Shown: piece by piece, positions 4,670-25,166 of the stretch | Layout of the letters: each line of letters begins with the position of its first letter | Position numbering within the stretch: the stretch's first letter is position 1 | Source: Candidatus Heimdallarchaeota archaeon | Lineage (GTDB): Archaea > Asgardarchaeota > Heimdallarchaeia > Heimdallarchaeales > Heimdallarchaeaceae | Length of the DNA: 25,166 nt | Reading direction: 5' to 3' | Assembly: GCA_030668825.1 (NCBI GenBank) | Contig: DAOVET010000035.1 | Coordinates: 1 to 25,166 of the forward strand | Made by a program: the position numbers and the translations under genes | Notes under the pieces: generated by a model | What the model was told of the DNA's origin: nothing | Database searches by the model: none | Seen by the model: only the letters and a program-made list of their open reading frames with translations

Positions 4670-4789
4670 AATAGAAGGCTGGAAAAGGCGCATAAAAGAG
4701 TTTTGCAGTCGATATGATTAGTATAGAAAAATTTCCTATTGATACAAAATTTTATTATATTTGGGTTGGTTTTGGCATTTAGAGTAATA

Positions 4790-7561
4790 ATGTCCATATC
4801 AAAAGATCAACTCAAAGAGAGATTCAAGAAGGAGAACTACGAAGTTAACCTATTCAAAGAAAAAGGATTTATCAGAAAGGAATGCCCTCACTGTAAGCAC
4901 CATTTCTGGACATTAATTCCAGATCAAGAAAACTGTGGAGATACCAGATGTTCTGGAGGGTATAAGTTCATTGGCAAAAAAGGAAAGAACATGGACTTTG
5001 ATCAAACAATTAAAAGTTTGACAGATTTCTTTGTAAAAAATGGTCATACCGCAATAAAGGATTATCCAGTTGTATCAAGATGGAGAGCTGATATGGACTT
5101 TACAATAGCCTCTATAGCTGATTTTCAACCATGGGTTTTAGAAGGGGTTGTTGATCCCCCAGCAAATCCTCTAGTTGTACCCCAAATGTGTATTAGAACA
5201 GGTGGAGAATTCTCAGATATAGATAACATTGGAAAAACAGCTAGACATTTAACTAGTTTCGTTATGTTTGGACAACATTCTTTCAATTCTAAAACACTAA
5301 CTGATGGGTACTGGATCGATAGATGCTTAGATTTGAACTTTCAATATCTAACTGACGAATTAGGACTTAAACCTGAAGAAATATCTTATGTGGAGGGCAT
5401 TTGGGCAGGTGGAGGTAACTTTGGACCTAATTTGGAAGCTATGGCTTACGGAATAGAAGTTGTGAATAATGTATTTATTGCTTATGGATTCGATAATGGA
5501 AAAGTAAAGGATCTTGATATGCAAGTAATAGATGTAGGTTGGGGTTTGGATAGAGTATCATGGTTCTCCCAAGGAACACCATCAATATACGAAGCAATAT
5601 TTCCAAAGGCCATTAACTATTTACAAAAAGAAAATGATTACAAACCAGACCATAAATTACTAGTAGAATACAATATACTTGCAGGTCTTTTAGCAGTGGA
5701 AGAAGTCAAAGATTTGAGAGAAGAAAGAAAACAAATGGCTAAGAAACTAGGGATGACATATGATGAAATGCTAAAAGTTCTTGGCCCACAAGAAGCAATA
5801 TATGCAATTGCAGACCATGCAAGAACACTATCTATGACAATTGCTGACGGAGCAATTCCTTCAAATGTAGGTGGTGGATACAACCTAAGAGTTCTTTTGC
5901 GAAGAATAGAAGCTCTCAGAAGTTTATATGGGTTACAATTCTCATTTGAGAAACTATTTGATCTTCAAATTAATCAACTATCTGTCTCTTATCCTAGAGT
6001 AAAGGAACATAGAGAGGATATACTCAAAATAGTTGATATAGAACTTAAACGATATGAAGAAACTAAGAAATCAGGAAAAAGAATTGTTAATCAACTAATC
6101 CAAAAGAAAAAGGAATTTGATTTTAAAACACTCGTAGATTTGTATCAAAACAATGGAATCAATCCTTTAATGATCAAGGAACTAGCTAAAGAAAGCAAAG
6201 TGGATGTTGAAGTCCCCGACGATTTTTATAGTAAATTGGAAGAGTATCTTGCACAGCAAAAAGCAAAGCAAAAAATAGCTAAGGATGAACTCGTTTTAGA
6301 ATTAGAAGAAGAATACATTACTCAAGCTTTATACTATGAAGATGCCTATAAGACGAAGTTTGAAGCTAAGGTAGAATCAGTACTAAAAGGTAAATATCTT
6401 GTACTAGATAAAACACTATTCTACCCTACAGGTGGAGGACAGATTCACGACATTGGCACTATTATTGCAGATGGAAAAGAATTTCATGTCACTGACGTTT
6501 TCAAAAAAGGACCGACAATCATTCATAAGCTAGGGGAAAAATGTGACCTCAAGAAAGGTCAATCTGTTAAAGGAGAAATTGATGGAAAAAGACGTATGGA
6601 TATTATGCGTCATCATACAGCTGTTCATGTTGTAAATGCCGCAGCAAAAGAAATTCTAGGAGATCATGTTTGGCAAGCAGGTGCAGATAAAACTGAACAT
6701 AAAGCTCGATTAGATATAACACATTACAACTCAGTAAAAGCAGAAGAATTGCAAAGGATAGAATATTTGGCTAACCAAGTAGTATTTGAGAATCGATTAA
6801 TTTCAAAAACTGATTTAGATAGAGATGAAGCCGAAAGGAATTATGGTTTCCAAATTTATCAAGGCGGTGTTGTTCCAGGAAAAACACTTCACATTGTGTC
6901 CATTAATGAATGGGATATAGAAGCATGTGGTGGTACACATCTAGATAGCACTAGTGACATTGGAATCATTAAGCTTGTTAGTAGTGAAAGAATCCAAGAT
7001 GGAATAGTGAGACTGGAAATTCTTGCAGGTAATCCAGCCCTGAAATACATTCAAGAACAAGAAAATATACTCAAAGAATCTTCAAATATTCTTAGTGTGG
7101 AACCTAAAATACTTCCTAAAACTGTAAATAGGTTCTTTAAGGAATGGAAGGAGCAGAAGAAAGAGATTGAAAATCTAAACCAAAAAATTGCTGAGTTGCG
7201 ATTTTCTCCAACTCAAATAAAAACTAAGAAGATCAAGAATGTTGATGTTTTAGTTCAAGAAACAACAGGAAATCAAAAAGAGCTAATTGTTCAAGCTACT
7301 CAAGCAGTCAAGAATTTTGAGAATGGAATAAGTATTTTGATTTCTTCAGATGAGGACAAAGTAATTCTAGTTGGAGCTAGGAGCAAAAATTCCAATGTTG
7401 ATATTTTTTCAATGATTAAGGAATTGTCAGAATTAGTTGGTGGTTCAGGTGGAGGAAGAGGAGAACTTGCAATTGGTGGAGGACCACAAAAAGAGAAATT
7501 AGCCGATTTAATATCAAATGTGGATAAGATTATTGAATTGAAAATTACTCAAACTAAATAA
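4790..7561 (+). CDS. alaS: Alanine--tRNA ligase, archaeal type
   Basis: N-terminal Zn finger (CPHC..CGD..C), FTIASIADFQP, IDVGWGLDR, AIADHARTL, editing motifs HHTAVH and ACGGTH, C-terminal GGSGGG. ATG at 4790 preferred over TTG at 4739. Confidence 0.97.
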   Translation: MSISKDQLKERFKKENYEVNLFKEKGFIRKECPHCKHHFWTLIPDQENCGDTRCSGGYKFIGKKGKNMDFDQTIKSLTDFFVKNGHTAIKDYPVVSRWRADMDFTIASIADFQPWVLEGVVDPPANPLVVPQMCIRTGGEFSDIDNIGKTARHLTSFVMFGQHSFNSKTLTDGYWIDRCLDLNFQYLTDELGLKPEEISYVEGIWAGGGNFGPNLEAMAYGIEVVNNVFIAYGFDNGKVKDLDMQVIDVGWGLDRVSWFSQGTPSIYEAIFPKAINYLQKENDYKPDHKLLVEYNILAGLLAVEEVKDLREERKQMAKKLGMTYDEMLKVLGPQEAIYAIADHARTLSMTIADGAIPSNVGGGYNLRVLLRRIEALRSLYGLQFSFEKLFDLQINQLSVSYPRVKEHREDILKIVDIELKRYEETKKSGKRIVNQLIQKKKEFDFKTLVDLYQNNGINPLMIKELAKESKVDVEVPDDFYSKLEEYLAQQKAKQKIAKDELVLELEEEYITQALYYEDAYKTKFEAKVESVLKGKYLVLDKTLFYPTGGGQIHDIGTIIADGKEFHVTDVFKKGPTIIHKLGEKCDLKKGQSVKGEIDGKRRMDIMRHHTAVHVVNAAAKEILGDHVWQAGADKTEHKARLDITHYNSVKAEELQRIEYLANQVVFENRLISKTDLDRDEAERNYGFQIYQGGVVPGKTLHIVSINEWDIEACGGTHLDSTSDIGIIKLVSSERIQDGIVRLEILAGNPALKYIQEQENILKESSNILSVEPKILPKTVNRFFKEWKEQKKEIENLNQKIAELRFSPTQIKTKKIKNVDVLVQETTGNQKELIVQATQAVKNFENGISILISSDEDKVILVGARSKNSNVDIFSMIKELSELVGGSGGGRGELAIGGGPQKEKLADLISNVDKIIELKITQTK

Positions 7562-7585
7562 GAATCTAATATGACTACCTTCTTT

Positions 7586-7945
7586 TTATTCCTTGGAGTT
7601 AAATTTGATATTTCTTAATCCAGTTGGGGACAAAGATCTTATCTCAACAGGAACAGTAGATGGTGCAATCATTAGTGTTTCATTGGATACCATCTTCAAG
7701 GTAGCATGAAGTTCAGCTGAGGTTTTCTTCAGAGACTGTAGAAATTCATTTTTCCTCTCAGGACATGCTGAAATTCTATTTATATTTAGGAAAATTAAAT
7801 TTCCTTCTTTAACTTCATCCATAATACGATCAGTTTTAACAATATCAATTAGAGAGTAAAATTTCACTCCAGGAGGTTGTGAATTGACTTGAGTATCTTC
7901 TGGTTTAATTTTAGAATCTTTTAGAATCTTTTTCTTAATACCCAT
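7586..7945 (-). CDS. sepF: Archaeal SepF-like cell-division protein
   Basis: 119 aa with a basic/amphipathic N-terminus. The pattern IMDEVKEGNLIFLNI...LKK...LMIAPSTV fits the archaeal SepF family. Confidence 0.7.
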   Translation of the reverse strand: MGIKKKILKDSKIKPEDTQVNSQPPGVKFYSLIDIVKTDRIMDEVKEGNLIFLNINRISACPERKNEFLQSLKKTSAELHATLKMVSNETLMIAPSTVPVEIRSLSPTGLRNIKFNSKE

Positions 7946-8019
7946 AGAGTTTAACCCATTTAATGAGAAGTTTACACTTAATAAAACCAGATTAATACAG
8001 TAATAACATTAGGGTAATA

Positions 8020-8038
8020 CTAGAAAAAGAAAGAAGTA
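8020..8038 (-). terminator. Oligo-U/pyrimidine tract immediately after the orphan tfb 3'-end copy
   Basis: The minus strand reads TACTTCTTTCTTTTTCTAG directly after TAA. Archaeal intrinsic terminators are U-tracts. Confidence 0.5.
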
Positions 8039-8068
8039 TTAGAACTTCCATGGATCACGAACATAAAC
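8039..8068 (-). repeat. Displaced direct copy of the last 10 codons of tfb (VYVRDPWKF*)
   Basis: ttagaacttccatggatcacgaacataaac versus 8441-8470 ctaaaatttccatggatcgcgaacataaac: 26/30 identical, and all 4 differences are at third codon positions. Confidence 0.92.
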
Positions 8069-8098
8069 TATTTCATCAAACATAGGAATTATGAGGGA

Positions 8099-8332
8099 TT
8101 ATTTGTATCTGGAGAGTATCTGTTCCAAATCTGAACCATATTCTTCTAGATATAATCTCTTTATATCTACGCAAGGAAAACAAAGTGAACCTTTAGTCTT
8201 ATAACACCAATTACAAAAAAAAGTTAAAATTCTTTTATCCTTGTTAATAGATGCATTAAACTCATCACAAAGTTGTTTTAATGTATCGTATAATTCTGTA
8301 GGATACTTGTTCCTAGCACCTTCCCATTTCAT
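8099..8332 (-). CDS. Small hypothetical protein with CxxC-x7-CxxC (putative Zn-binding); cargo between the tfb repeats
   Basis: 77-aa ATG ORF in otherwise free space, containing CNWC..CFPC, with a BRE/TATA-like element 25-32 nt upstream. Confidence 0.7.
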   Translation of the reverse strand: MKWEGARNKYPTELYDTLKQLCDEFNASINKDKRILTFFCNWCYKTKGSLCFPCVDIKRLYLEEYGSDLEQILSRYK

Positions 8333-8356
8333 TCTGTAAACAGTATGAAATTAAAC

Positions 8357-8371
8357 TAATAAAAGTTTTTC
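8357..8371 (-). promoter_or_regulatory. BRE + TATA box of the 77-aa gene (probably leaderless)
   Basis: Minus strand GAAAAAC-TTTTATTA, with the TATA 25-32 nt upstream of the ATG at 8332. Confidence 0.55.
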
Positions 8372-8440
8372 AAATAGAAGTTAAATCTGAAGGAGTAAAT
8401 AAATATCTAATATATTAAGAATTTGTGTATATTTAATTAA

Positions 8441-9403
8441 CTAAAATTTCCATGGATCGCGAACATAAACAGGTGCTGATGCTGCTCCTCTTTTTACGAT
8501 TACGTTAGCTAATTCTAAAGAGTCTACTATTTCTCGGAATCGATTTCGTAATGTAACTGGAGTTGTTTTTGCTACTTTAGCGACTTGTTGTTGAGTTCTT
8601 CTTTCACCAGTTCTGATTCCCGCGATATATATTGCGGCGGCGGCGACACTTAACGGATTCTTACCCATATCAAGTCTTCTTGATTTGCTCTCTTCTAGAA
8701 TTTTCAAAGCTTCATTCTGTGTAGCAGTTGTTAATTCAAGTTCATTACATAACTTAGTGAGTAAAACTGCAGGATCAATAGGTGTTGGTTTAATGTGTAA
8801 TTCCTGAACATATAATCTGAAACATCGAGCGATAACTTTCTTGTCTGCTCTGACATGTTTTTCAATATCTTTAAGTGTGGTCGGATTGTTATATTGACGA
8901 GCTGCAATGTATATTGCGGCAGCAACCATAGATTCAATGCTTCTTCCACGAATTAAATCCGCTTTCAAAGCTTTTCTATAAGTAGTAGCTGATGCTTCTG
9001 CTATCTCATCACTTAACTCAAGTTGACTTACTATTCTTTTCAGCTCTCTCAAAGCAATTCTCAGGTTTCGGATTTGGGATCGAGAATCTCTTCTATTAAG
9101 CCATCTCAATCTTCTCATCTTTGCCACAACATTTGGATCTAGTTTCTTACCAAAGATATCCATGTTACCAAAACTAATTTGAGATGAAACACCATAATCA
9201 GATTTTAGGGGTGATATTGGTGAACCAGTTCTACTCCGAGCAGCTTTTTCTTCTCCTGTAAATGCTCTCCATTCAGGAGTTGTATCAATTAATTTAGAAA
9301 CCACTAACCCACAATTACTGCAAATAGACTCACCACGAGTGTAGTCATCAATAATTTCCTCGGAGTTACAATTTGGGCAGCGCTCTTCACTCATTCCAGA
9401 CAC
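8441..9403 (-). CDS. tfb: Transcription initiation factor IIB (TFB); start GTG 9403 or ATG 9394
   Basis: Zn ribbon CPNC..CSNC, B-reader PEWRAF..RSRTGSP, and two cyclin repeats (LIRGRSIE..AAAIYIAAR; GKNPLSVAAAAIYIA; RTQQQVAKVAKTTPVTLRNRFREI). Confidence 0.97.
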   Translation of the reverse strand: MSGMSEERCPNCNSEEIIDDYTRGESICSNCGLVVSKLIDTTPEWRAFTGEEKAARSRTGSPISPLKSDYGVSSQISFGNMDIFGKKLDPNVVAKMRRLRWLNRRDSRSQIRNLRIALRELKRIVSQLELSDEIAEASATTYRKALKADLIRGRSIESMVAAAIYIAARQYNNPTTLKDIEKHVRADKKVIARCFRLYVQELHIKPTPIDPAVLLTKLCNELELTTATQNEALKILEESKSRRLDMGKNPLSVAAAAIYIAGIRTGERRTQQQVAKVAKTTPVTLRNRFREIVDSLELANVIVKRGAASAPVYVRDPWKF

Positions 9404-15620: not shown

Positions 15621-17687
15621 CTGAGTTATGAACGTGAAGATATTGTCGAATTAGACTTCCAAGAATTGGATCTTCCTGAAGTAACTCTATCAAAAACAAG
15701 AAAATCACAAATAATTTCACAACTCTATCTATATAGAGAAATTAACTTAAAATCGTTTTCTGAGCAGACTGGCGTTCCCATCGTAGCAATAAAAGACTAT
15801 ATACAGTTACTCATTCAAGCTCTTATTCTGAGGGGGTACTACAGAAAAAACAGATTTGTTCTAGTATCTGCATACAGATATCCAAGGGTGAATCCAGGAA
15901 AATTAAGCAATCTTAGAAGAAATTTGTTAGGAGTACTAGTAAGCAATCAAAAAATCGATATCCATTTTCTCCGCAAAATTTTGAACATTTCTTCTGATGA
16001 ACTAATATCACATCTTCTATTCCTCACTGTCAGAGGGTTATTCATTGGAAGTCTGAGAAATCAAGAGATATTAGTTCAAAAAACATGGATGCCTTTCGAG
16101 AAAGTAAAAATCAGTTCTGATGATACATTTATCATAGGAACATGTATGCTTTTGCGAGATGCAGATTTAAGCAAAGTAGCAAAACTAACAGGTTTCACTA
16201 GAGATGGAGTATTTAACACAATTGCTAAGCTTATGTTGTATAACAAATTGGAAGCTTCATTTGAAGTTTCTGGAGGAATTGTTGGTTCTAGTAAAATTTC
16301 CGTAAACGTTAAAAAGTACCTGATTGCTCCGCGCACTTTACCCATGGAAGCTCTTCAAGGTGATGAAAGATCTGTAGTTGGGTATACTATATTGAAGAAA
16401 GAAGTAGATATAGAGGAATTAGCAAAATACCTTGATAAAAAAGAAAAAGAAGTAGTCAAAATTATTGCCTTCTTAACTGCAAGGGGTACTTTTCAATTTA
16501 TATTTAATGAGAAAAACAAGATAGTACCAGTTATCATTCCTGATACACAACCAAATCAAACAATAGAAGAAATGGCTACTTTATCATTTTTCAATTACGA
16601 AGCGTTGTTTGGTTTATTATCAACTCAAGAGCGAATTCCTCTCAGGAAACTTGCTACTTTGATGAATAGAGAAGTTGACGAAGTCTTAGAAGGTGTAATG
16701 AATCTATACCTAGAGGGATTTGTTACTTGTACATTAAAGGGTGCCACAATTCATGTAGATAGCCTCAAAAGGTATAGCAGAACTCAAGAAGGAACACTTG
16801 AAAGATGGGAAAAAATTGTACTGGGCATGATAATTGCAAAAACATCTATCACTACTAAAGACATCGAAGACGCATTAGGAATTGACAAAAATCATGCTAA
16901 AGAAAGAATGTATGGATTTTATGGAAAGGGTTTAATCAAAGGCAATATCACGGGAAATAAACTTGAACCTGAAGAAATTCCTATATTTCCTCCTTTGGTT
17001 CAACTAGATGATCTTCCAATTCATTATCAGGAAATTTTTGGTTACATTATTTCAAACTCTAGAGTTTCATTTAAGAATATAATGAAATTCTGGGAAAAAA
17101 CACTTGTTGCATCAAAGAACATTGTTTACGAATTAACAGGTTCTGGTCTGATGAATATATCTTCACGTGGAAGTACTGTAACATTAGTTTCAAGCCAAAA
17201 ATTCCTACCAAATAAACAGTTGAACGAACTAGGTGAAATTTACACAAGAGTTGTAAATGAGATTGAAAAATCAAGAAGAAAAAGGATTAAGTTAACAACA
17301 ATTGCAAATTCTGTTAGAATGGAATCTTTAGATTTGTTCAAGATGTTATGCCAGCTACTCTCCCATGGGTATTATAAAGGAGTATTAACTTCAGCTTATT
17401 TTGAAAGAGTTGGCAAAATATTATTACCAGTGGGCAAAAATTATTGCCTTAATTGTGGGCATGTAATAAAATCTTCTACTGAACCATGCAGTAATTGTAT
17501 GCTGTTGCATCAAAAATGTATGGTTTGTCAAGGATTAATTAAGAAGGGTGATAAAGTGAAGGAATGCCCAACTTGTAACAATGTTGCTCATGATGATCAT
17601 TTGGAACAATGGATGAAGATAAAGCAAGAATGTCCGATATGTAAAACTAGAATTTCGAAAAGAAATCTAAAAAAATATTCAGTATAA
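15621..17687 (+). CDS. Protein with about 8 tandem winged-helix (PCI-like) repeats + Zn ribbon + RING-variant finger; start uncertain (CTG 15621 or TTG 15666)
   Basis: A unit of about 75 aa (h-G-hh...I.h..LA..h......h...h..L...G.h.G.h) repeats 8 times. C-terminus CLNC..CSNC, then CMVC..CPTC..HDDH..W..CPIC. Confidence 0.75.
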   Translation: MSYEREDIVELDFQELDLPEVTLSKTRKSQIISQLYLYREINLKSFSEQTGVPIVAIKDYIQLLIQALILRGYYRKNRFVLVSAYRYPRVNPGKLSNLRRNLLGVLVSNQKIDIHFLRKILNISSDELISHLLFLTVRGLFIGSLRNQEILVQKTWMPFEKVKISSDDTFIIGTCMLLRDADLSKVAKLTGFTRDGVFNTIAKLMLYNKLEASFEVSGGIVGSSKISVNVKKYLIAPRTLPMEALQGDERSVVGYTILKKEVDIEELAKYLDKKEKEVVKIIAFLTARGTFQFIFNEKNKIVPVIIPDTQPNQTIEEMATLSFFNYEALFGLLSTQERIPLRKLATLMNREVDEVLEGVMNLYLEGFVTCTLKGATIHVDSLKRYSRTQEGTLERWEKIVLGMIIAKTSITTKDIEDALGIDKNHAKERMYGFYGKGLIKGNITGNKLEPEEIPIFPPLVQLDDLPIHYQEIFGYIISNSRVSFKNIMKFWEKTLVASKNIVYELTGSGLMNISSRGSTVTLVSSQKFLPNKQLNELGEIYTRVVNEIEKSRRKRIKLTTIANSVRMESLDLFKMLCQLLSHGYYKGVLTSAYFERVGKILLPVGKNYCLNCGHVIKSSTEPCSNCMLLHQKCMVCQGLIKKGDKVKECPTCNNVAHDDHLEQWMKIKQECPICKTRISKRNLKKYSV

Positions 17688-20641: not shown

Positions 20642-22519
20642 ATGTCAAAAGAAGATGAATTCAAGAAGTCATATGATAGACAATATTCTGATATTGAACT
20701 ATTAAAACGATTTTGGAGATATCTGAAAGTATACAAAAAATATCTTCTCTTTATAATAGTAGGTATTTTAGCAACAGCTGTTGTTACTATCCTCCCACCA
20801 TCTATGGTTCAAAGTGCTTTTGAAGCTTTGGCAGATAGAACTAACCCTTTCCCTCAAGCAATCGATTTTATGCCAACATCACTTTTCTTATGGAAATTTC
20901 AAATAAACTTGTGGAGAGCTGTTTACCCCTATGCAATTGGATATGTTCTTCTATCATTATTCTTATGGCTAGCCCAAGTACTTCTAGGGATCATTGTAAC
21001 CATTGTTTCACAAAAGATAATCAAACGCATTCAAATGGAAACCTATGAGAGTTTACAAGAACATGATTTGAGGTATTTTGACACGCAGTCAACAGGTCAA
21101 ATAATGAGCAGAATAACAAATGATTCCCAAGAACTGAATGATATGATCAACGTTGTTTCACAGTTTGTAGCTAATTTCTTCATATTATTTGCAGTACTGA
21201 TATGGATGTTCGTTGTAAATTGGAGACTGACATTTATCACACTTGGAATGGCTCCTTTTGTCTTTATTGTTGCTTTTTTCTTCAGAAGAATAACAAGATT
21301 AACCACTGGAAAATGGAGAGCATCAATTGGAGAGGTAAATGCTTCTTTCCAAGAGAGTGTAGCGGGGATTTCAGTAGCTAAAGCATTTGGAAGAGAAAAG
21401 AAATCTAAAGAAGAATTCGAAGTAATAAATCAAGCCACTTTCTATCACGCGAAAAAGAGAGCTTTTGCTGTGATGGGTATTTGGCCTTTGATGGATGGTA
21501 TAAGTACTATTGGTGTGTTTGGAATCACTCTCTACGGTAGTTGGTTATTCTTTGGAAGTCTGGCTTCGTCAGATGTTATTTTACTGTTCCTCCTACTTCT
21601 CAATAGATTCTTATATCCTCTTGTAAGAGTAGCATCACAGTTTTCAATTATACAAAGTGGTTTTGCAGCCATGGAACGCATTTTTAGTATAGTTGATGCT
21701 AAAAAGGAAATCACTAATCCAGCTAATCCAGTCAGTAAAGAGTTGCAAGGACAAATCACTTTCGAGGATGTTTTTCATCAATATGTTCAAGGAGAACTCG
21801 TATTAAATAATATCAATCTTAAGATTCAACCAGGAGAATCTGTAGCCGTGGTGGGCCATACAGGAGCCGGGAAGACAACCATTGCTTCCCTGTTGATGAG
21901 ATTTTATGATATCTTCAAAGGTTCCATCAAAATTGATGGTGTTGACATTCGAGATTATGACTTACATAATTTAAGATCACAGATAGGATTGGTAAGTCAA
22001 GATGTTTTCCTATTTAGTGGAACTGTTCTAGATAATATTAGATATGGAAGTCCTGAAGCAAGCTTATCACAAGTTCAAGAAGTTATCAACATAGTTTCAG
22101 CTCAGGAATTCATAGACGCTTTACCTGATGGTTTAGAGACTGAATTAGGAGAACGAGGTAAGGGTCTTTCAGCTGGACAGCGTCAAATGGTTTCATTTGC
22201 TAGAACATTATTAACTGATCCTAAGATATTAATTTTGGATGAAGCTACAGCTGCAGTGGATGCTTATACTGAATGGAAAATCCAAGAAGCACTCGATAAG
22301 CTTCTAGCTGACAGAACTTCGATAGTAATAGCTCATCGTTTAACAACTATAAAGAATTCAGACAGAATCATAGTTCTTGATCAAGGTAAAATAGTTGAAG
22401 AAGGAGATCATGAAGGCCTAATGAAAGAGAAAGGATTATATTCAGAGCTTTATGAGACTTACTTTAAACATCAATCTGCAGAATGGATAGCAGAAATAAG
22501 TGATGTATTTACTGATTAA
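20642..22519 (+). CDS. Type IV ABC exporter half-transporter (TMD+NBD), partner subunit
   Basis: TM domain, GHTGAGKTT, degenerate signature LSAGQRQ, LILDEATAAVD and IAHRL. Starts after a 1-nt gap following the partner gene, with SD GGAGGAG. Confidence 0.93.
   Translation: MSKEDEFKKSYDRQYSDIELLKRFWRYLKVYKKYLLFIIVGILATAVVTILPPSMVQSAFEALADRTNPFPQAIDFMPTSLFLWKFQINLWRAVYPYAIGYVLLSLFLWLAQVLLGIIVTIVSQKIIKRIQMETYESLQEHDLRYFDTQSTGQIMSRITNDSQELNDMINVVSQFVANFFILFAVLIWMFVVNWRLTFITLGMAPFVFIVAFFFRRITRLTTGKWRASIGEVNASFQESVAGISVAKAFGREKKSKEEFEVINQATFYHAKKRAFAVMGIWPLMDGISTIGVFGITLYGSWLFFGSLASSDVILLFLLLLNRFLYPLVRVASQFSIIQSGFAAMERIFSIVDAKKEITNPANPVSKELQGQITFEDVFHQYVQGELVLNNINLKIQPGESVAVVGHTGAGKTTIASLLMRFYDIFKGSIKIDGVDIRDYDLHNLRSQIGLVSQDVFLFSGTVLDNIRYGSPEASLSQVQEVINIVSAQEFIDALPDGLETELGERGKGLSAGQRQMVSFARTLLTDPKILILDEATAAVDAYTEWKIQEALDKLLADRTSIVIAHRLTTIKNSDRIIVLDQGKIVEEGDHEGLMKEKGLYSELYETYFKHQSAEWIAEISDVFTD
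22348..22519 (+). repeat. Direct repeat copy 1 (functional 3' end of the ABC gene)
   Basis: Matches 23841-24012 at 168/172 nt. Looser similarity (ATTACAAAA-ACTGCAA) continues about 21 nt past the stop. Confidence 0.95.
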
Positions 22520-22610
22520 ATTTTATTACAAAAACTGCAAGTTTTAGAATATCTCGGTAGTATGAACATCTATAAAATTAGAATACCGACCTTTATAAAA
22601 TTAACTTAGA

Positions 22611-23810
22611 TTACCGAATTTTATGTTTTTTTGCAGAATCTATTGCAGTAGCTATTGTCACTTGACATACTTTTTTAATGAAATTAAAGTCTAGCTTATC
22701 AATTGTATCTGCTTCTGTATGGTAAAATGGATATCTGAAATTTGCTGAATCAGTTATCATTAATGCAGGAATTCCTTCAAGCCAAAAAGGTGCATGATCT
22801 GATCTCAATAGATCAAAAAATCTCTTAGCTATTGTTTCAAAACTCAATGGTATTCTTATTCTTATATAAGGTAGTTGAATGGAATCATTTTTACATTGTT
22901 TGCTGAATGATTTTGCTAGCATTTTTGATTTTTTATCACTCACTACTGTGATGAAATTACCAATTGCTTTAAACTGTTTAACTTTGTAGCTGGGAAATAG
23001 AATTGGATGCATTAATGGTGGATAAATTTGAGAGTTTTTTCTTTTTGCGGTATAGCCTACAGTTTCATTATTTATAACTCCAATTATTTCTCTCTTATCT
23101 CTCATAGCTTTTGCAACCCATTCACTGCTCCCAACCATTCCTGCCTTTCCTATCCAAGATGTATAAGTGTCCTTAGAATATAGCTGACTTATAAATTCAA
23201 AATACTTCTTCTCTTGATCTGTAAGCTCATTCATAATCTCTTTTAATGCAAGTTCCCATGACTCTGCTAATGTTCTTCCCTTTGCTACATTTCTATAAAC
23301 GAAATTAAAACACTCTTTATACATTTTTTGTGTATGATAAGTTAAAAACCTATAATTCTCATCCATTAATTCTAATTCCTGTGCCAACTTTAGCTGTTTT
23401 AATTCTCTTGAAGGATTAAATTCTTCTAAAGTAAAACTTACAAAACGAATATTGTTAGTTTCCTTTTCTTTCGCTAAAATTCTAGCTGCTTCCAGCATTA
23501 TTGCAATAGCAGATCCATTATCATTTGCTCCAGGTGCATTTATGACCGTATCATAATGACTAGTAATCAATACTTCTGGACCAGAACTATTTTCAAAATA
23601 TCCTTCAATATTTCTAAAAGACTGATCAAAATCTTCAATTTTGAATACTTGTTCTTGAACTTGTAATCCATATTTCATGAATTTATTTTTTATATAATCT
23701 GCTGTTTCATCCAATTTTTTTTGTGCCAATATTGGATGTTTAATTCCCTCAACATTCAAGATATGTTGGTATAATCTCTCTATATCAACCTGTTCAATAA
23801 TGTCCTTCAT
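22611..23810 (-). CDS. M28-family zinc metallopeptidase (start ATG 23810 preferred; 23864 lies inside the repeat)
   Basis: Motifs SHYDT, PGANDNGSA, FTLEE, NNETVG, RSDHAPFW and FYHTEADT. Confidence 0.9.
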   Translation of the reverse strand: MKDIIEQVDIERLYQHILNVEGIKHPILAQKKLDETADYIKNKFMKYGLQVQEQVFKIEDFDQSFRNIEGYFENSSGPEVLITSHYDTVINAPGANDNGSAIAIMLEAARILAKEKETNNIRFVSFTLEEFNPSRELKQLKLAQELELMDENYRFLTYHTQKMYKECFNFVYRNVAKGRTLAESWELALKEIMNELTDQEKKYFEFISQLYSKDTYTSWIGKAGMVGSSEWVAKAMRDKREIIGVINNETVGYTAKRKNSQIYPPLMHPILFPSYKVKQFKAIGNFITVVSDKKSKMLAKSFSKQCKNDSIQLPYIRIRIPLSFETIAKRFFDLLRSDHAPFWLEGIPALMITDSANFRYPFYHTEADTIDKLDFNFIKKVCQVTIATAIDSAKKHKIR

Positions 23811-23840
23811 CTGTAACATTAACATAAAGTTATACATGTT

Positions 23841-24012
23841 TATAAAGAATTCAGACAGAATCATAGTTCTTGATTAAGGTAAAATAGTTGAAGAAGGAGA
23901 TCATGAAAGCCTAATGAAAGAAAAAGGATTATATTCAGAGCTTTATGAGACTTACTTTAAACATCAATCTGCAGAATGGATAGCAGAAATAAGTGATGTA
24001 TTTACAGATTAA
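23841..24012 (+). pseudogene. Direct repeat copy 2: orphan 3' fragment of the ABC exporter gene with a nonsense change
   Basis: Differences from copy 1: CAA->TAA (23875), GGC->AGC, GAG->GAA and ACT->ACA. Confidence 0.92.
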
Positions 24013-24092
24013 TTCGATTACAAAACACTGCAAAGGACATCACCTTCTTGTTTATTCCAGATTTCTGAAAGGAGAGCTTGAAACAGCAGATA

Positions 24093-24413
24093 TCATGAAA
24101 AGACCCCCTTATTAGAAGACCGTCTATTTGCTTCATCTGATGTGAGTAGGTCTAGAATTTGTAAGAGCTGTTCATAAGGAATTAATTTTGGTGGATAATG
24201 GCATATGATCTTTAATCCAGTTGTACGATGTTGAAAAATAATAGAATGGTTGTTTTTGATAACTTTATCTATTTCAAAAAGCTGTCTTAAGAAACTAATT
24301 ACTTGGATAAATTCCTTTATTTTGTTTTTCTTCCGTGTTGCTTGTTCTAGATGATAATCAGCAGCAATGTCTACTAATTTATCTAAATGATTGTTAGAAC
24401 TAATTATCCTCAT
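24093..24413 (-). CDS. Hypothetical protein, C-terminal part resembling the HicA toxin fold
   Basis: Overlaps the recombinase stop by 14 nt. FEIDKVIKNNHSIIFQH..GLKIICHYPPKLIPYEQLLQIL loosely follows the HicA pattern. Confidence 0.5.
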   Translation of the reverse strand: MRIISSNNHLDKLVDIAADYHLEQATRKKNKIKEFIQVISFLRQLFEIDKVIKNNHSIIFQHRTTGLKIICHYPPKLIPYEQLLQILDLLTSDEANRRSSNKGVFS

Positions 24414-25137
24414 CCTCCTGTGTTTTGATTATTGGTTCAACTCTGTAAGCTACCTTCCCCCTGAAGAGATATTCCCCTGTTCGATAAATTGGATTTCTTA
24501 CCATGTAGGATAATGTACTGGTAGGGAGCTTGACTTTATGACTAATTCTAGAGTAAGAATAATTATTATCAAACATACGAAAAATTTCAATGATTAAAGG
24601 TCTAAGCTCTTCATCAACAACTAATTTACCATCAATTATTTTATAACCATAAGGAGCTCGAGACATTACTTTTTCTTCTTTAAGCCTTCTTTCTATACCT
24701 TGCTCACTTTTTAATCGGGTTTTTCTTAGTTCTTCCTCTCCCATAAGATCGTAGATCCTTTTCTTAAGATTAGAATCATTGTCTTCAGTAGAATGAATTT
24801 CAACACACAGTTTCCTAAGCAAAATAGTAGCATAACCTAGATAATCTACATCTCTAGCTATACGATCCCGAGTTTGTACCCAGACTTCTTTAATAGGACC
24901 ACTAGGATTCTGCAGGTTGAAGTCTTTTGTAAATTTTAGTAGTTCTTTAAAAGCTGGTCGCTCTTCAGGTGAAATGTCTCCTGAAACACCTTCATCAGTA
25001 AAAGTCTTGATAATAGATCTATAACCTAGAGATTCTATTTTCTTAGTAACAACATTTATTTGTGTGCTGATTCCTGATTCTTGGTCATTAGTACTAGTTC
25101 GAGAATAAACAAGAACAGGAATAGGGATATGTTTCAA
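24400..25137 (-). CDS. Serine recombinase (resolvase catalytic domain + short recombinase-type DNA-binding region)
   Basis: VYSRTST..Q (catalytic Ser), FTDEGVSG..ERPAF, TRDRIARD, RAPYGY and NPIY..G. TTG start preceded by AAAGGAG. Confidence 0.92.
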   Translation of the reverse strand: MKHIPIPVLVYSRTSTNDQESGISTQINVVTKKIESLGYRSIIKTFTDEGVSGDISPEERPAFKELLKFTKDFNLQNPSGPIKEVWVQTRDRIARDVDYLGYATILLRKLCVEIHSTEDNDSNLKKRIYDLMGEEELRKTRLKSEQGIERRLKEEKVMSRAPYGYKIIDGKLVVDEELRPLIIEIFRMFDNNYSYSRISHKVKLPTSTLSYMVRNPIYRTGEYLFRGKVAYRVEPIIKTQEDEDN

Positions 25138-25166
25138 ACCGACTCCTTTAATCTCGTTAATATCTA

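Follow-up and report, generated by a model that had tools for sequence, protein, structure and literature searches.

The end of the gene for transcription factor B (tfb; TFB/TFIIB) is encoded twice in the DNA analysed here, a 25,166-nt stretch of a Candidatus Heimdallarchaeota contig (DAOVET010000035.1) that we refer to as the window. One copy is in use by tfb, and the other, which lies on the far side of a small gene that we call zf, is most likely the displaced original end of tfb, judging from comparison with related genomes. With modest confidence, we favour a single recombination between related lineages of the genus, combining a homologous crossover inside tfb with an illegitimate join at 8068|8069. 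The event appears to resemble homology-facilitated illegitimate recombination (HFIR), a form of recombination with one homologous and one illegitimate end, accompanied by displacement of the gene's tail, rather than the arrival of a cassette that targets tfb.

Both copies are on the minus strand and encode VYVRDPWKF*. The proximal copy (8470-8441; GTT TAT GTT CGC GAT CCA TGG AAA TTT TAG) supplies the last nine codons and the stop that tfb uses now, and the distal copy (8068-8039; GTT TAT GTT CGT GAT CCA TGG AAG TTC TAA) is untranslated. Rereading the sequence confirmed what the earlier note had described: the copies are identical at 26 of 30 nt, and the four differences (CGC/CGT, AAA/AAG, TTT/TTC, TAG/TAA) are all at third positions and all silent. 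A repeat search placed the two copies in the same orientation with a spacing of 402. This was the sole direct pair of 30-mers with at least 26 of 30 matches within 1 kb in the real window, and no such pair was generated in 40 first-order Markov simulations of the window. The longest identical runs between the copies were 11 nt and occurred twice (repeat positions 1-11 and 13-23); such runs would suit a short att core and would also be seen between the tails of two orthologous genes.

Two explanations would involve no transfer at all: slippage or unequal exchange could have duplicated the tfb end locally, with later divergence of the copies, or two haplotypes could have been joined by an assembly artefact. 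The closeness and shared orientation of the copies are consistent with such an origin, as is the state of the source genome, a metagenome-assembled draft of 138 contigs. However, single contigs that span both copies in tandem were found in runs X1, X8, and X12 (0, 0, and 1 differences, respectively) and in run X14 (about 96% identical), representing four studies. These contigs, one of them from a lineage about 4% diverged, rule out an assembly artefact and show that the copies are not alternative haplotypes of one locus. A duplication is also contradicted by zf orthologs that occupy the corresponding position in other species and by the distal copy itself, which has not diverged from the functional tails of relatives. 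In addition, an untranslated duplicate would not have kept all of its differences silent. The identity of the distal copy and the bridging assemblies effectively refute an origin without transfer, which we regard as highly improbable. In the X14 lineage, the distal copy carries two changes, 8045 C>T and 8057 A>G. Two RNA runs contained just 0.12 of the sampled words from the window.

The tfb gene (8441-9403, minus strand) is an intact ORF of 320 aa that ends in VYVRDPWKF*. Pfam identified an N-terminal Zn ribbon (PF08271, E 4.1e-15) and two cyclin-like TFIIB repeats (PF00382, two stretches, E 6.8e-35), as expected of a TFB. The protein also matched NCBIfam NF001658 (E 1.4e-97), with a score of 326.6 bits that falls under the 384-bit cut-off of that model. 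Orthologs were detected in 22 of the 24 other genomes of the genus. Two TFB paralogs lack the C-terminal tail (aa 300-320), and their matches end near aa 299.

Alignment of six genomes revealed a single block, 8069-8470 (minus strand, 402 bases), that is present in the source genome and absent from its five closest species. These relatives have an empty target site that lacks exactly these positions, in agreement with the earlier observation that similarity between the copies ends sharply upstream of the Val codon. Most relatives do not share the arrangement, the opposite of what would have overturned the initial reading. The block comprises a second tfb tail, a promoter, and zf, and is present in one copy in the genome. 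The only ORF of at least 60 aa within it is zf, which is overlapped by a few shorter ORFs. Searches of Pfam, PHROGs, and NCBIfam detected no recombinase or integrase in or beside the insert, whose flanking genes are tfb and a sepF-like gene; the sole recombinase ORF in the window is located at 24400-25137, 16 kb from the insert.

The relatives also indicate which copy is the older resident. Together with its downstream flank, the distal copy is identical to the tfb end of two genomes without zf (G024 and G018) and differs by one base from that of G009. In the proximal copy, TTT and TAG are private to the source genome within its six-species clade, and CGC and AAA also occur in the functional tfb tails of G012 and G013. 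Taken with the silence of all four differences, these findings support two earlier proposals, namely that the copies represent the coding ends of tfb from two lineages and that the distal one was probably the original end.

The product of zf (8099-8332, minus strand) is a 77-aa Cys-rich protein of no known family. We found 22 homologs with 62-99% identity, 20 of which are also 77 aa long; the closest lineages with zf are represented by the X14 contig and by homolog P0002 (84-92% identical). The cysteines C22, C40, C43, C51, and C54 are invariant, and the pattern C40-x2-C43-x7-C51-x2-C54 is present in all 23 sequences. No family match was obtained in Pfam, PHROGs, NCBIfam, PDB sequences, the protein atlas, or a fold search. 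The best hit in a PDB profile search had an E value of only 0.11, to a designed protein, and Foldseek with an AlphaFold2 model of poor quality (mean pLDDT 66) returned nothing below E 7 from the PDB. Viral contigs contained no relatives of zf. In summary, zf encodes a conserved, genus-restricted small Cys-rich protein that probably binds zinc. An RNA gene was also considered as the true target of insertion and rejected, as Rfam returned only a chance-level DapZ match inside zf (E 1) and the window contains no tRNA.

The spacer between tfb and zf (8333-8440, minus strand) contains a BRE-like element, GAAAAA (8366-8371), and a TATA-like element, CTTTTATTA (8357-8365), 25-39 nt upstream of the zf ATG. 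A purine-rich plus T/A-rich motif upstream of zf was retained in the eight loci with enough upstream sequence, and the T-rich part was visible in L063, for which only 30 nt were available. Based on this position and conservation, the elements probably constitute the zf promoter. Downstream, a 30-nt untranslated stretch (8069-8098, minus strand) follows zf and would represent the last donor-type bases before the junction.

The distribution of zf in the genus is patchy. All five relatives in the 100/99-supported clade of the source genome lack it, and 17 of the 19 loci from other genomes with both tfb and sepF consist of tfb, a short spacer, and sepF. In G003, G019, L062, L064, and L065, zf lies directly downstream of tfb, indicating that the donor-type arrangement exists. 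Four of these five loci have no tail repeat, L064 being the exception. Loci with tfb and zf but no repeat are expected from ordinary exchange with homology at both ends, and the source genome would therefore be an exceptional outcome. Wherever tfb is present, the interval between tfb and sepF holds either zf or nothing. The possibility raised earlier that various cargo genes might occupy this slot thus found no support among the relatives. G021 falls outside this count, as its zf is preceded by 218 nt that do not belong to tfb.

If the proximal end of tfb was imported, donor-type sequence might be expected in tfb beyond the inserted DNA. Differences per 150 nt showed no sharp divergence step across tfb relative to any of the five relatives, and sites private to the source genome were used instead to judge the direction of transfer. 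The source genome differs from all five relatives at 14 tfb sites, and 10 of the 14 are in the last 232 nt of the gene (nt 732-963; window 8441-8672, minus strand), a clustering with a binomial P of 2.5e-4 and a scan-statistic P of about 5e-4. At each of these 10 sites, the five relatives agree on one state, and 6 of the 10 states of the source genome are absent from the other 23 tfb 3' ends compared. Past the right junction, 365 nt could be aligned and contained no private site. Because the private sites cluster in this way and stop there, the foreign-looking tract appears to begin well upstream of the 30-nt repeat, extending at least 200 nt into tfb, and to end at the junction. The cluster is suggestive but not proof, because clusters of similar size occur in the same alignment in G013 (14 in one 200-column bin) and G024 (10). 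Alternatively, it could reflect homogenisation among the five relatives.

In the reading that we prefer, a related lineage carrying zf would have contributed about 0.6-0.85 kb of DNA to the resident chromosome. This piece would have begun within tfb, taking in at least the last ~230 nt of the gene, and continued through the spacer with its zf promoter and through zf itself to 30 nt of 3' untranslated sequence. Its left end would have been incorporated by homologous recombination within tfb, between nt 483 and 732 (window 8672 to 8921). Its right end would have been joined illegitimately, without extended homology, at 8068|8069, where the block private to the source genome ends, 30 nt upstream of the resident tfb stop. 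The last nine resident codons, the stop, and the oligo-T tract would thereby have moved 402 bp downstream and ceased to be translated. The event leaves the sequence of the TFB protein unaltered, since a tfb end arrived with the donor piece.

Transcripts of zf, and any that read through from tfb, probably now have their 3' end and terminator in the displaced sequence. Transcription in archaea terminates at oligo-T tracts. A pyrimidine-rich tract (8020-8038, minus strand), the first such tract downstream of tfb and zf, contains a T5 run at 8024-8028 that is the first five-T run downstream of tfb, 11-15 nt past the distal stop. The longest T run in the tfb-zf spacer is four, and there is no T5 tract between the proximal stop and the zf start, which upholds the claim that a U-tract terminator follows the distal copy only. 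The same tract is the terminator-like tract of tfb in relatives without zf, and by analogy we assign it a probable terminator role here. The flank beyond it also appears to be resident. A strongly conserved motif of about 35 nt, tagtattaccctaatgttattactgtattaatctg (7988-8022, minus strand), lies upstream of sepF and was recovered by pattern in 21 of 22 loci of the genus, with no match to Rfam and no tRNA. The sepF-like gene itself (7586-7945, minus strand; PF04472, E 1.3e-07) is located downstream of tfb in 19 of the 22 loci from other genomes of the genus.

No donor locus was found that combines the proximal tail variant with the absence of a relic, and for this reason the direction of transfer rests on parsimony and the substitution pattern. 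The polarity could be reversed: the lineage of the source genome would natively have had tfb followed by zf, and a fragment from a relative without zf (tfb tail, spacer, sepF, and beyond) would have been imported. In that case, sepF/alaS would mark the side of the homologous crossover and the illegitimate join would lie 30 nt past the zf stop, making the distal copy the import and the current tail native. This would make an unsampled donor unnecessary. Sampled species without zf (G024 and G018) match the distal copy and its flank exactly. Over the first 150 nt on the sepF side, the source genome has 0 differences from G009 and 1 from G013, and SepF is 99% identical to that of G009, compared with 94-97% for the other four relatives. 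Moreover, X14 differs from the source genome by about 1.6-1.7% in zf and the tfb 3' part versus about 3.9% in sepF, based on the 39 of 47 differences listed. However, 150-nt stretches of low divergence also occur inside tfb, so that the sepF signal is not distinctive. An import of this polarity would also need loss of zf in five sister species plus G006 and G010, and an extra exchange, as nt 1-731 of tfb resemble the relatives and nt 732-963 do not. We therefore consider the reversed direction quite unlikely.

The earlier note had suggested that the current TFB tail is cassette-derived and that tfb is an integration target. A small circular cassette with a mimic of the tfb tail as attachment sequence plus zf, inserted with a recombinase acting in trans, either site-specifically or by a Campbell-type single crossover, would explain why direct repeats bound the insert exactly and why the incoming copy restores the reading frame. 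A crossover within the first 11 identical bases would give the observed placement of all four differences. Two further loci point the same way. In L064, a relic of the tfb tail lies about 32 nt past the zf stop, a distance similar to that in the source genome, and in L061, zf and its promoter have unrelated surroundings, with an adjacent ORF that matches phrog_12985. Elsewhere in the window there is another tail duplication, of 193 nt (ABC transporter, M28 peptidase), and a serine-recombinase ORF lies about 370 nt past it.

Several observations contradict this proposal: the insert is a single genomic copy with no recombinase in or next to it, a second tail is found in none of the 24 other genomes of the genus (one tail in 22, none assembled in two), and the repeat-free loci and absence of zf from viral contigs described above do not fit a mobile cassette. 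The repeats are unequal in length (30 nt in the source genome, at least 60 nt in L064, with a different boundary), and the divergent tract reaches at least 200 nt upstream of the repeat. None of the contigs of the four runs was reported to join 8068 to 8471, as an empty site or excision would, although this is a weak point because contigs drop rare variants. A site-specific cassette is accordingly rather unlikely in our estimation, and tfb is more likely a homology anchor than an attachment site. Two variants were also rejected. A fixed cassette end is not apparent, as nine loci share only about 8-15 nt past the zf stop, including the first ~8 nt (tccctca) common to the source genome and L061; an integron-like cassette would call for an integrase and a recurring recombination site, neither of which was found.

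The relic in L064 and the unrelated locus of L061 are nevertheless easier to reconcile with a discrete mobile module than with a one-off accident, which counts against the single import that we favour. The similar spacing from the zf stop to the relic (30 nt in the source genome, 32 nt in L064) may be a coincidence. We think it improbable, but worth stating, that a module consisting of the tfb tail, the promoter, and zf spreads without a recombinase, using the conserved tfb 3' end as a homing sequence. There would then have been at least two independent tail-displacing insertions (the source genome and L064), and the 193-nt duplication at the ABC transporter and M28 peptidase genes would have arisen by the same route.

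HFIR has been described for Acinetobacter, Streptococcus pneumoniae, and Pseudomonas stutzeri undergoing natural transformation and for E. coli conjugation (PMC3240628, PMC5361080), and it has been put forward as the origin of the displaced remnants found downstream at T6SS and Rhs loci (PMC5361080). Among the papers listed in a literature search, none dealt with an archaeal case, as judged by titles and abstracts. The non-homologous join in HFIR usually falls at a microhomology. As in HFIR, homology (here in tfb) would anchor one end, the other end would be joined without homology with foreign DNA (zf) trapped between them, and donor-type substitutions appear in the anchor. Unlike those cases, the present one rests on comparative sequence only, from an uncultured archaeon without a known DNA-uptake route, and the join falls upstream of the end of the anchor gene, resulting in a 30-nt duplication rather than a deletion.

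The displacement of C-terminal parts in Rhs/CDI/T6SS loci offers a second likeness: an incoming module that has the conserved upstream part in common with the resident gene replaces its 3' end, and the old end is left untranslated downstream, as set out in parts of PMC5361080 (citing Jackson et al. 2009 for rhs), which also describe 'orphan' 3' ends and immunity genes at these loci. In contrast to Rhs/CDI, the old and new ends of tfb encode the same nine residues, so that function is unchanged. The locus has neither a toxin/immunity logic nor a series of successive remnants, and its payload, zf, is a small gene in its own right that matches no toxin or immunity family. The likeness would thus be one of mechanism only. 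Integrative elements flanked by att sites share with this locus the direct repeats of the target gene's 3' end, the intact target, and the empty site in relatives. As portrayed in main-text passages, however, such elements are kilobases long, encode an integrase or casposase, and have recurring att sequences, whereas the insert here is 402 bp, has no recombinase, occurs once among 25 genomes of the genus, and is accompanied by a divergent tract beyond the repeat. The target genes named in these passages do not include tfb.

The event is an informative and fairly ordinary trace of gene exchange, not a new kind of mobile element. It provides a clean, datable footprint of interspecies DNA exchange in an uncultured Asgard-type genus, in which the displaced end reveals the resident lineage. 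It also cautions that a repeat of a gene's 3' end is not always the attachment site of a mobile element. If the less probable spread of a module were true, these Asgard archaea would regularly acquire accessory genes through tail-carrying insertions at conserved gene ends, and zf, always beside tfb, would be a lineage-specific TFB partner or modulator. Apart from this, zf, which nearly always adjoins the basal transcription factor gene, is a reasonable candidate for a small transcription-related protein. More broadly, the locus suggests that archaeal genomes, too, are shaped by recombination that is homologous at one end and illegitimate at the other, a process described until now in bacteria, and tail relics of this kind could be counted genome-wide as its trace.

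The tfb gene (8441-9403, minus strand; 320 aa, with TFIIB repeats and a Zn ribbon) is followed on the same strand by a 77-aa Cys-rich ORF, here called zf (8099-8332), and by a sepF-like gene (7586-7945; PF04472); alaS (4739-7561) is convergent with all three. The last nine tfb codons and the stop codon (8470-8441, proximal copy) recur on the minus strand beyond zf (8068-8039, distal copy). The copies share 26 of their 30 nt and differ by four changes, every one of them silent (CGC/CGT, AAA/AAG, TTT/TTC, and TAG/TAA). No direct pair of this kind within 1 kb arose in 40 Markov simulations of the window; the real window contained exactly one. Reading from the window sequence, no T5 run was present between the tfb stop codon and zf, the earliest one 3' of tfb on its own strand lying past the distal copy (8024-8028). 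The earlier note had described this pair correctly in every detail, including the degree of match, the silent differences, and the T tract after the distal copy only. Approximately 55-60 nt upstream of sepF, a noncoding motif of about 35 nt (7988-8022; tagtattaccctaatgttattactgtattaatctg) was present in 21 of 22 genus loci and was more conserved than the adjoining coding sequence; it had no Rfam match and is probably a promoter or operator of sepF.

The window is contig 29 of a draft genome (G000; 2.76 Mb, 138 contigs), and homologs originate from metagenomes of cold seeps and marine sediment. The 701 bases over both junctions were found in full in 11 sequencing runs from 4 studies. Contigs were checked in four runs, each from a different study, and a single contig spanned both copies in X1 (7400-8615, 0 differences), X8 (7400-8620, 0 differences), X12 (7944-9259, 1 difference), and X14 (7400-8653, 47 differences and 5 gaps, about 96% identity). 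The two-tail arrangement therefore exists in the DNA and is not an assembly artefact; it is also present in the X14 lineage, which is about as diverged as a sister species. Because single contigs bridge both copies, these are not the alternative haplotypes that the earlier note had allowed for, and an explanation by duplication or artefact is very improbable. Among the 39 of 47 X14 differences listed by position, two lie in the distal copy, where C>T at 8045 (AAG to AAA) and A>G at 8057 (CGT to CGC) produced the states of the proximal copy, a possible sign of conversion involving the other copy or a relative's tfb.

Of the 24 other species in the genus, 22 yielded an orthologous tfb locus, and 19 of these loci also had sepF downstream; 17 of the 19 consisted of tfb, a short spacer, and sepF, without zf. 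Four of 25 genus genomes (G000, G003, G019, and G021) carried zf, as did none of 22 genomes from the remainder of the order. A tfb tree with 22 rows needed three changes to account for its three zf carriers, and G000 grouped with five species that all lack zf (clade support 100/99). The only G000-specific block in a six-genome alignment was the 402 bp at 8470-8069. The distal copy and its downstream flank were identical to the tfb end of two close relatives (G024 and G018) and one base off in a third (G009); the distal copy therefore looks like the displaced resident tfb end, in agreement with the earlier note, which had taken it for the probable original. The proximal copy differed by 2-4 bases from the tails of the five closest relatives. 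A search with a degenerate tail pattern detected two copies in G000 alone; 22 of the 24 other genomes had a single copy, and the remaining 2, in which the tfb ortholog was not assembled, had none. The tfb ortholog was missing from the assemblies of G021 and G015; the G021 contig begins 218 nt 5' of zf with sequence that is not tfb (L034/L037 1-220), and G017 has its tfb split across contigs C90 and C116 near aa 299. The neighborhood of the tfb 3' end seems to be a place where assemblies break, which polymorphism of the populations at this site would explain.

By comparison with relatives, the tract that looks foreign extends beyond the repeat. At 14 tfb sites, G000 had a state found in none of the five relatives, and 10 of these sites lay in the last 232 nt (nt 732-963). 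At these 10 sites the five relatives shared one common state; eight were upstream of the repeat, and six of the G000 states occurred in none of 23 other tfb 3' ends compared. The clustering gave a binomial P of 2.5e-4 (5e-4 when any 232-nt window was allowed), with the caveats that private-site clusters of similar size occurred elsewhere in other genomes of the alignment and that divergence per 150 nt showed no sharp step. Past the right junction, there were no G000-private sites in 365 aligned bases. The simplest reading, which we consider moderately probable, is a one-time import from a zf-carrying relative. A donor piece of about 0.6-0.85 kb would have entered by a homologous crossover in tfb, between nt 483 and 732, at its left end, and its right end would have been joined illegitimately to resident DNA, 30 nt short of the resident stop codon. 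No donor was found among the sequences searched.

The earlier note had instead suggested that the current tail is cassette-derived and that tfb served as an integration target. We regard a true cassette as unlikely. Donor substitutions 200 nt upstream cannot be placed by a crossover within a 30-nt attachment site, whereas a homologous crossover inside tfb can place them. The 402-bp insert carries no recombinase and occurs once in G000, a second tail was found in none of the 24 other genus genomes, and zf directly follows tfb without a repeat at four loci (G003, G019, L062, and L065). Moreover, zf was missing from the viral contig collection, and no RNA gene or tRNA was present at the site. Two metagenomic loci do favor a mobile module. 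In L064, the order is tfb, zf, and, 32 nt past the zf stop codon, a decayed tfb-tail relic (1612-1671; VTVKREVVSAPVSIRNPWKF versus VIVKRGAASAPVYVRDPWKFD plus stop, 65% over 20 aa; tblastn E 2e-4 and 4e-5, in small sets searched), followed by a convergent M29 peptidase in place of sepF. Judging from this relic, L064 is a tail displacement that is independent or much older, with a boundary unlike that of G000. In L061 (1-1681), zf and its conserved promoter occupy an unrelated locus, between a partial ORF matching phrog_12985 (E 1.8e-5) and downstream ORFs whose genus homologs are only 46-50% identical. However, the relic boundaries are unequal (30 nt in G000 versus at least 60 nt in L064) and sequences 3' of zf are common only for the first 8-15 nt; a fixed cassette end is therefore not established.

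The import could also have run in the opposite direction, G000 being natively zf-positive and receiving the tail relic and the sepF side from a relative that lacks zf. Over its first 150 nt, the sepF side showed 0 differences to G009, but equally low-divergence 150-nt windows also occurred inside tfb, and we consider this history quite unlikely.

The zf product is a real and conserved small protein restricted to the genus. Its 22 homologs (62-99% identity) include 20 of 77 aa and an 84-aa variant with a divergent C-terminus; the closest nonidentical homolog, P0002 (85 aa), has an internal 8-aa tandem duplication (CVDIKRLY twice) spanning the second CxxC half-site. Invariant residues include C22, C40, C43, C51, and C54, forming C40-x2-C43-x7-C51-x2-C54, and the protein probably binds metal. 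Pfam, PHROGs, NCBIfam, PDB, a protein atlas, and a fold search with the predicted model all failed to connect it to a known family, structure, or fold, and the near-constant position after tfb is the sole hint of function. At eight loci with enough upstream sequence, a purine-rich element and then a T/A-rich box lay 25-39 nt 5' of the zf ATG; in a ninth (L063), with 30 nt of upstream sequence, just the T-rich part was visible. This is consistent with a BRE/TATA promoter belonging to zf and a short or absent leader. The zf coding strand contains a T8 run (8216-8223, codons for T-F-F), whereas T runs in the G003 and G019 orthologs do not exceed four; in an archaeon, such a run could make part of the transcripts terminate early.

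Elsewhere in the window, a second tail duplication was observed, a 193-nt direct repeat of 93% identity (22348-22540 and 23841-24033). An ABC-transporter ORF (20642-22519, plus strand) has the first copy as its true 3' end; the second contains an in-frame CAA>TAA and therefore resembles a relic. Between the two copies lies an M28 peptidase gene (22611-23864, minus strand). The full arrangement was common only to G013 (95%); G009 and G012 matched up to the end of the ABC gene only, G018 to the same point from query position 141, and G024 over the first 452 bases only, where its contig seems to end. In the flank of the distal copy, the G009 match went on for about 26 nt. About 370 nt past this copy, the window's end (24093-25166) holds a serine-recombinase ORF (24400-25137, minus strand; PF00239; phrog_95 "integrase", E 4.7e-27) and a 106-aa ORF with no known family in Pfam, PHROGs, or NCBIfam, and is possibly part of a mobile element; G022 matched 24066-24450 at 94%, covering the 106-aa ORF and the 3' end of the recombinase ORF. 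A 673-aa ORF (15666-17687) combines a PCI-domain match (E 1.9e-07) with a RING finger at its C-terminus (PF13639, E 3.5e-06); such eukaryote-like pairings of domains are typical of Asgard genomes.

With a homologous left end and an illegitimate right end, the proposed import corresponds in outline to homology-facilitated illegitimate recombination, a process defined in bacteria (PMC3240628). It also fits the "displacement" model put forward for T6SS and Rhs loci, in which the former 3' parts end up farther downstream (PMC5361080). In Thaumarchaeota, 14 of 68 integrated elements lie in 3'-distal parts of protein-coding genes; such elements carry integrases and are much larger, unlike the 402-bp tfb insert, and tfb is not among the targets named in the main-text passages compared (PMC6563490). 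Among the papers listed by literature searches, none, judged by title and abstract, described an archaeal case of homology-facilitated illegitimate recombination or dealt with integration at tfb.

The TFB protein sequence is unaffected by the event. Because tfb is without its immediate oligo-T tract, read-through from tfb into zf is plausible, and the displaced tail with the old T tract would form the present 3' end of the zf transcription unit. The locus represents an ordinary outcome of recombination, unusually well preserved, in an interesting lineage.
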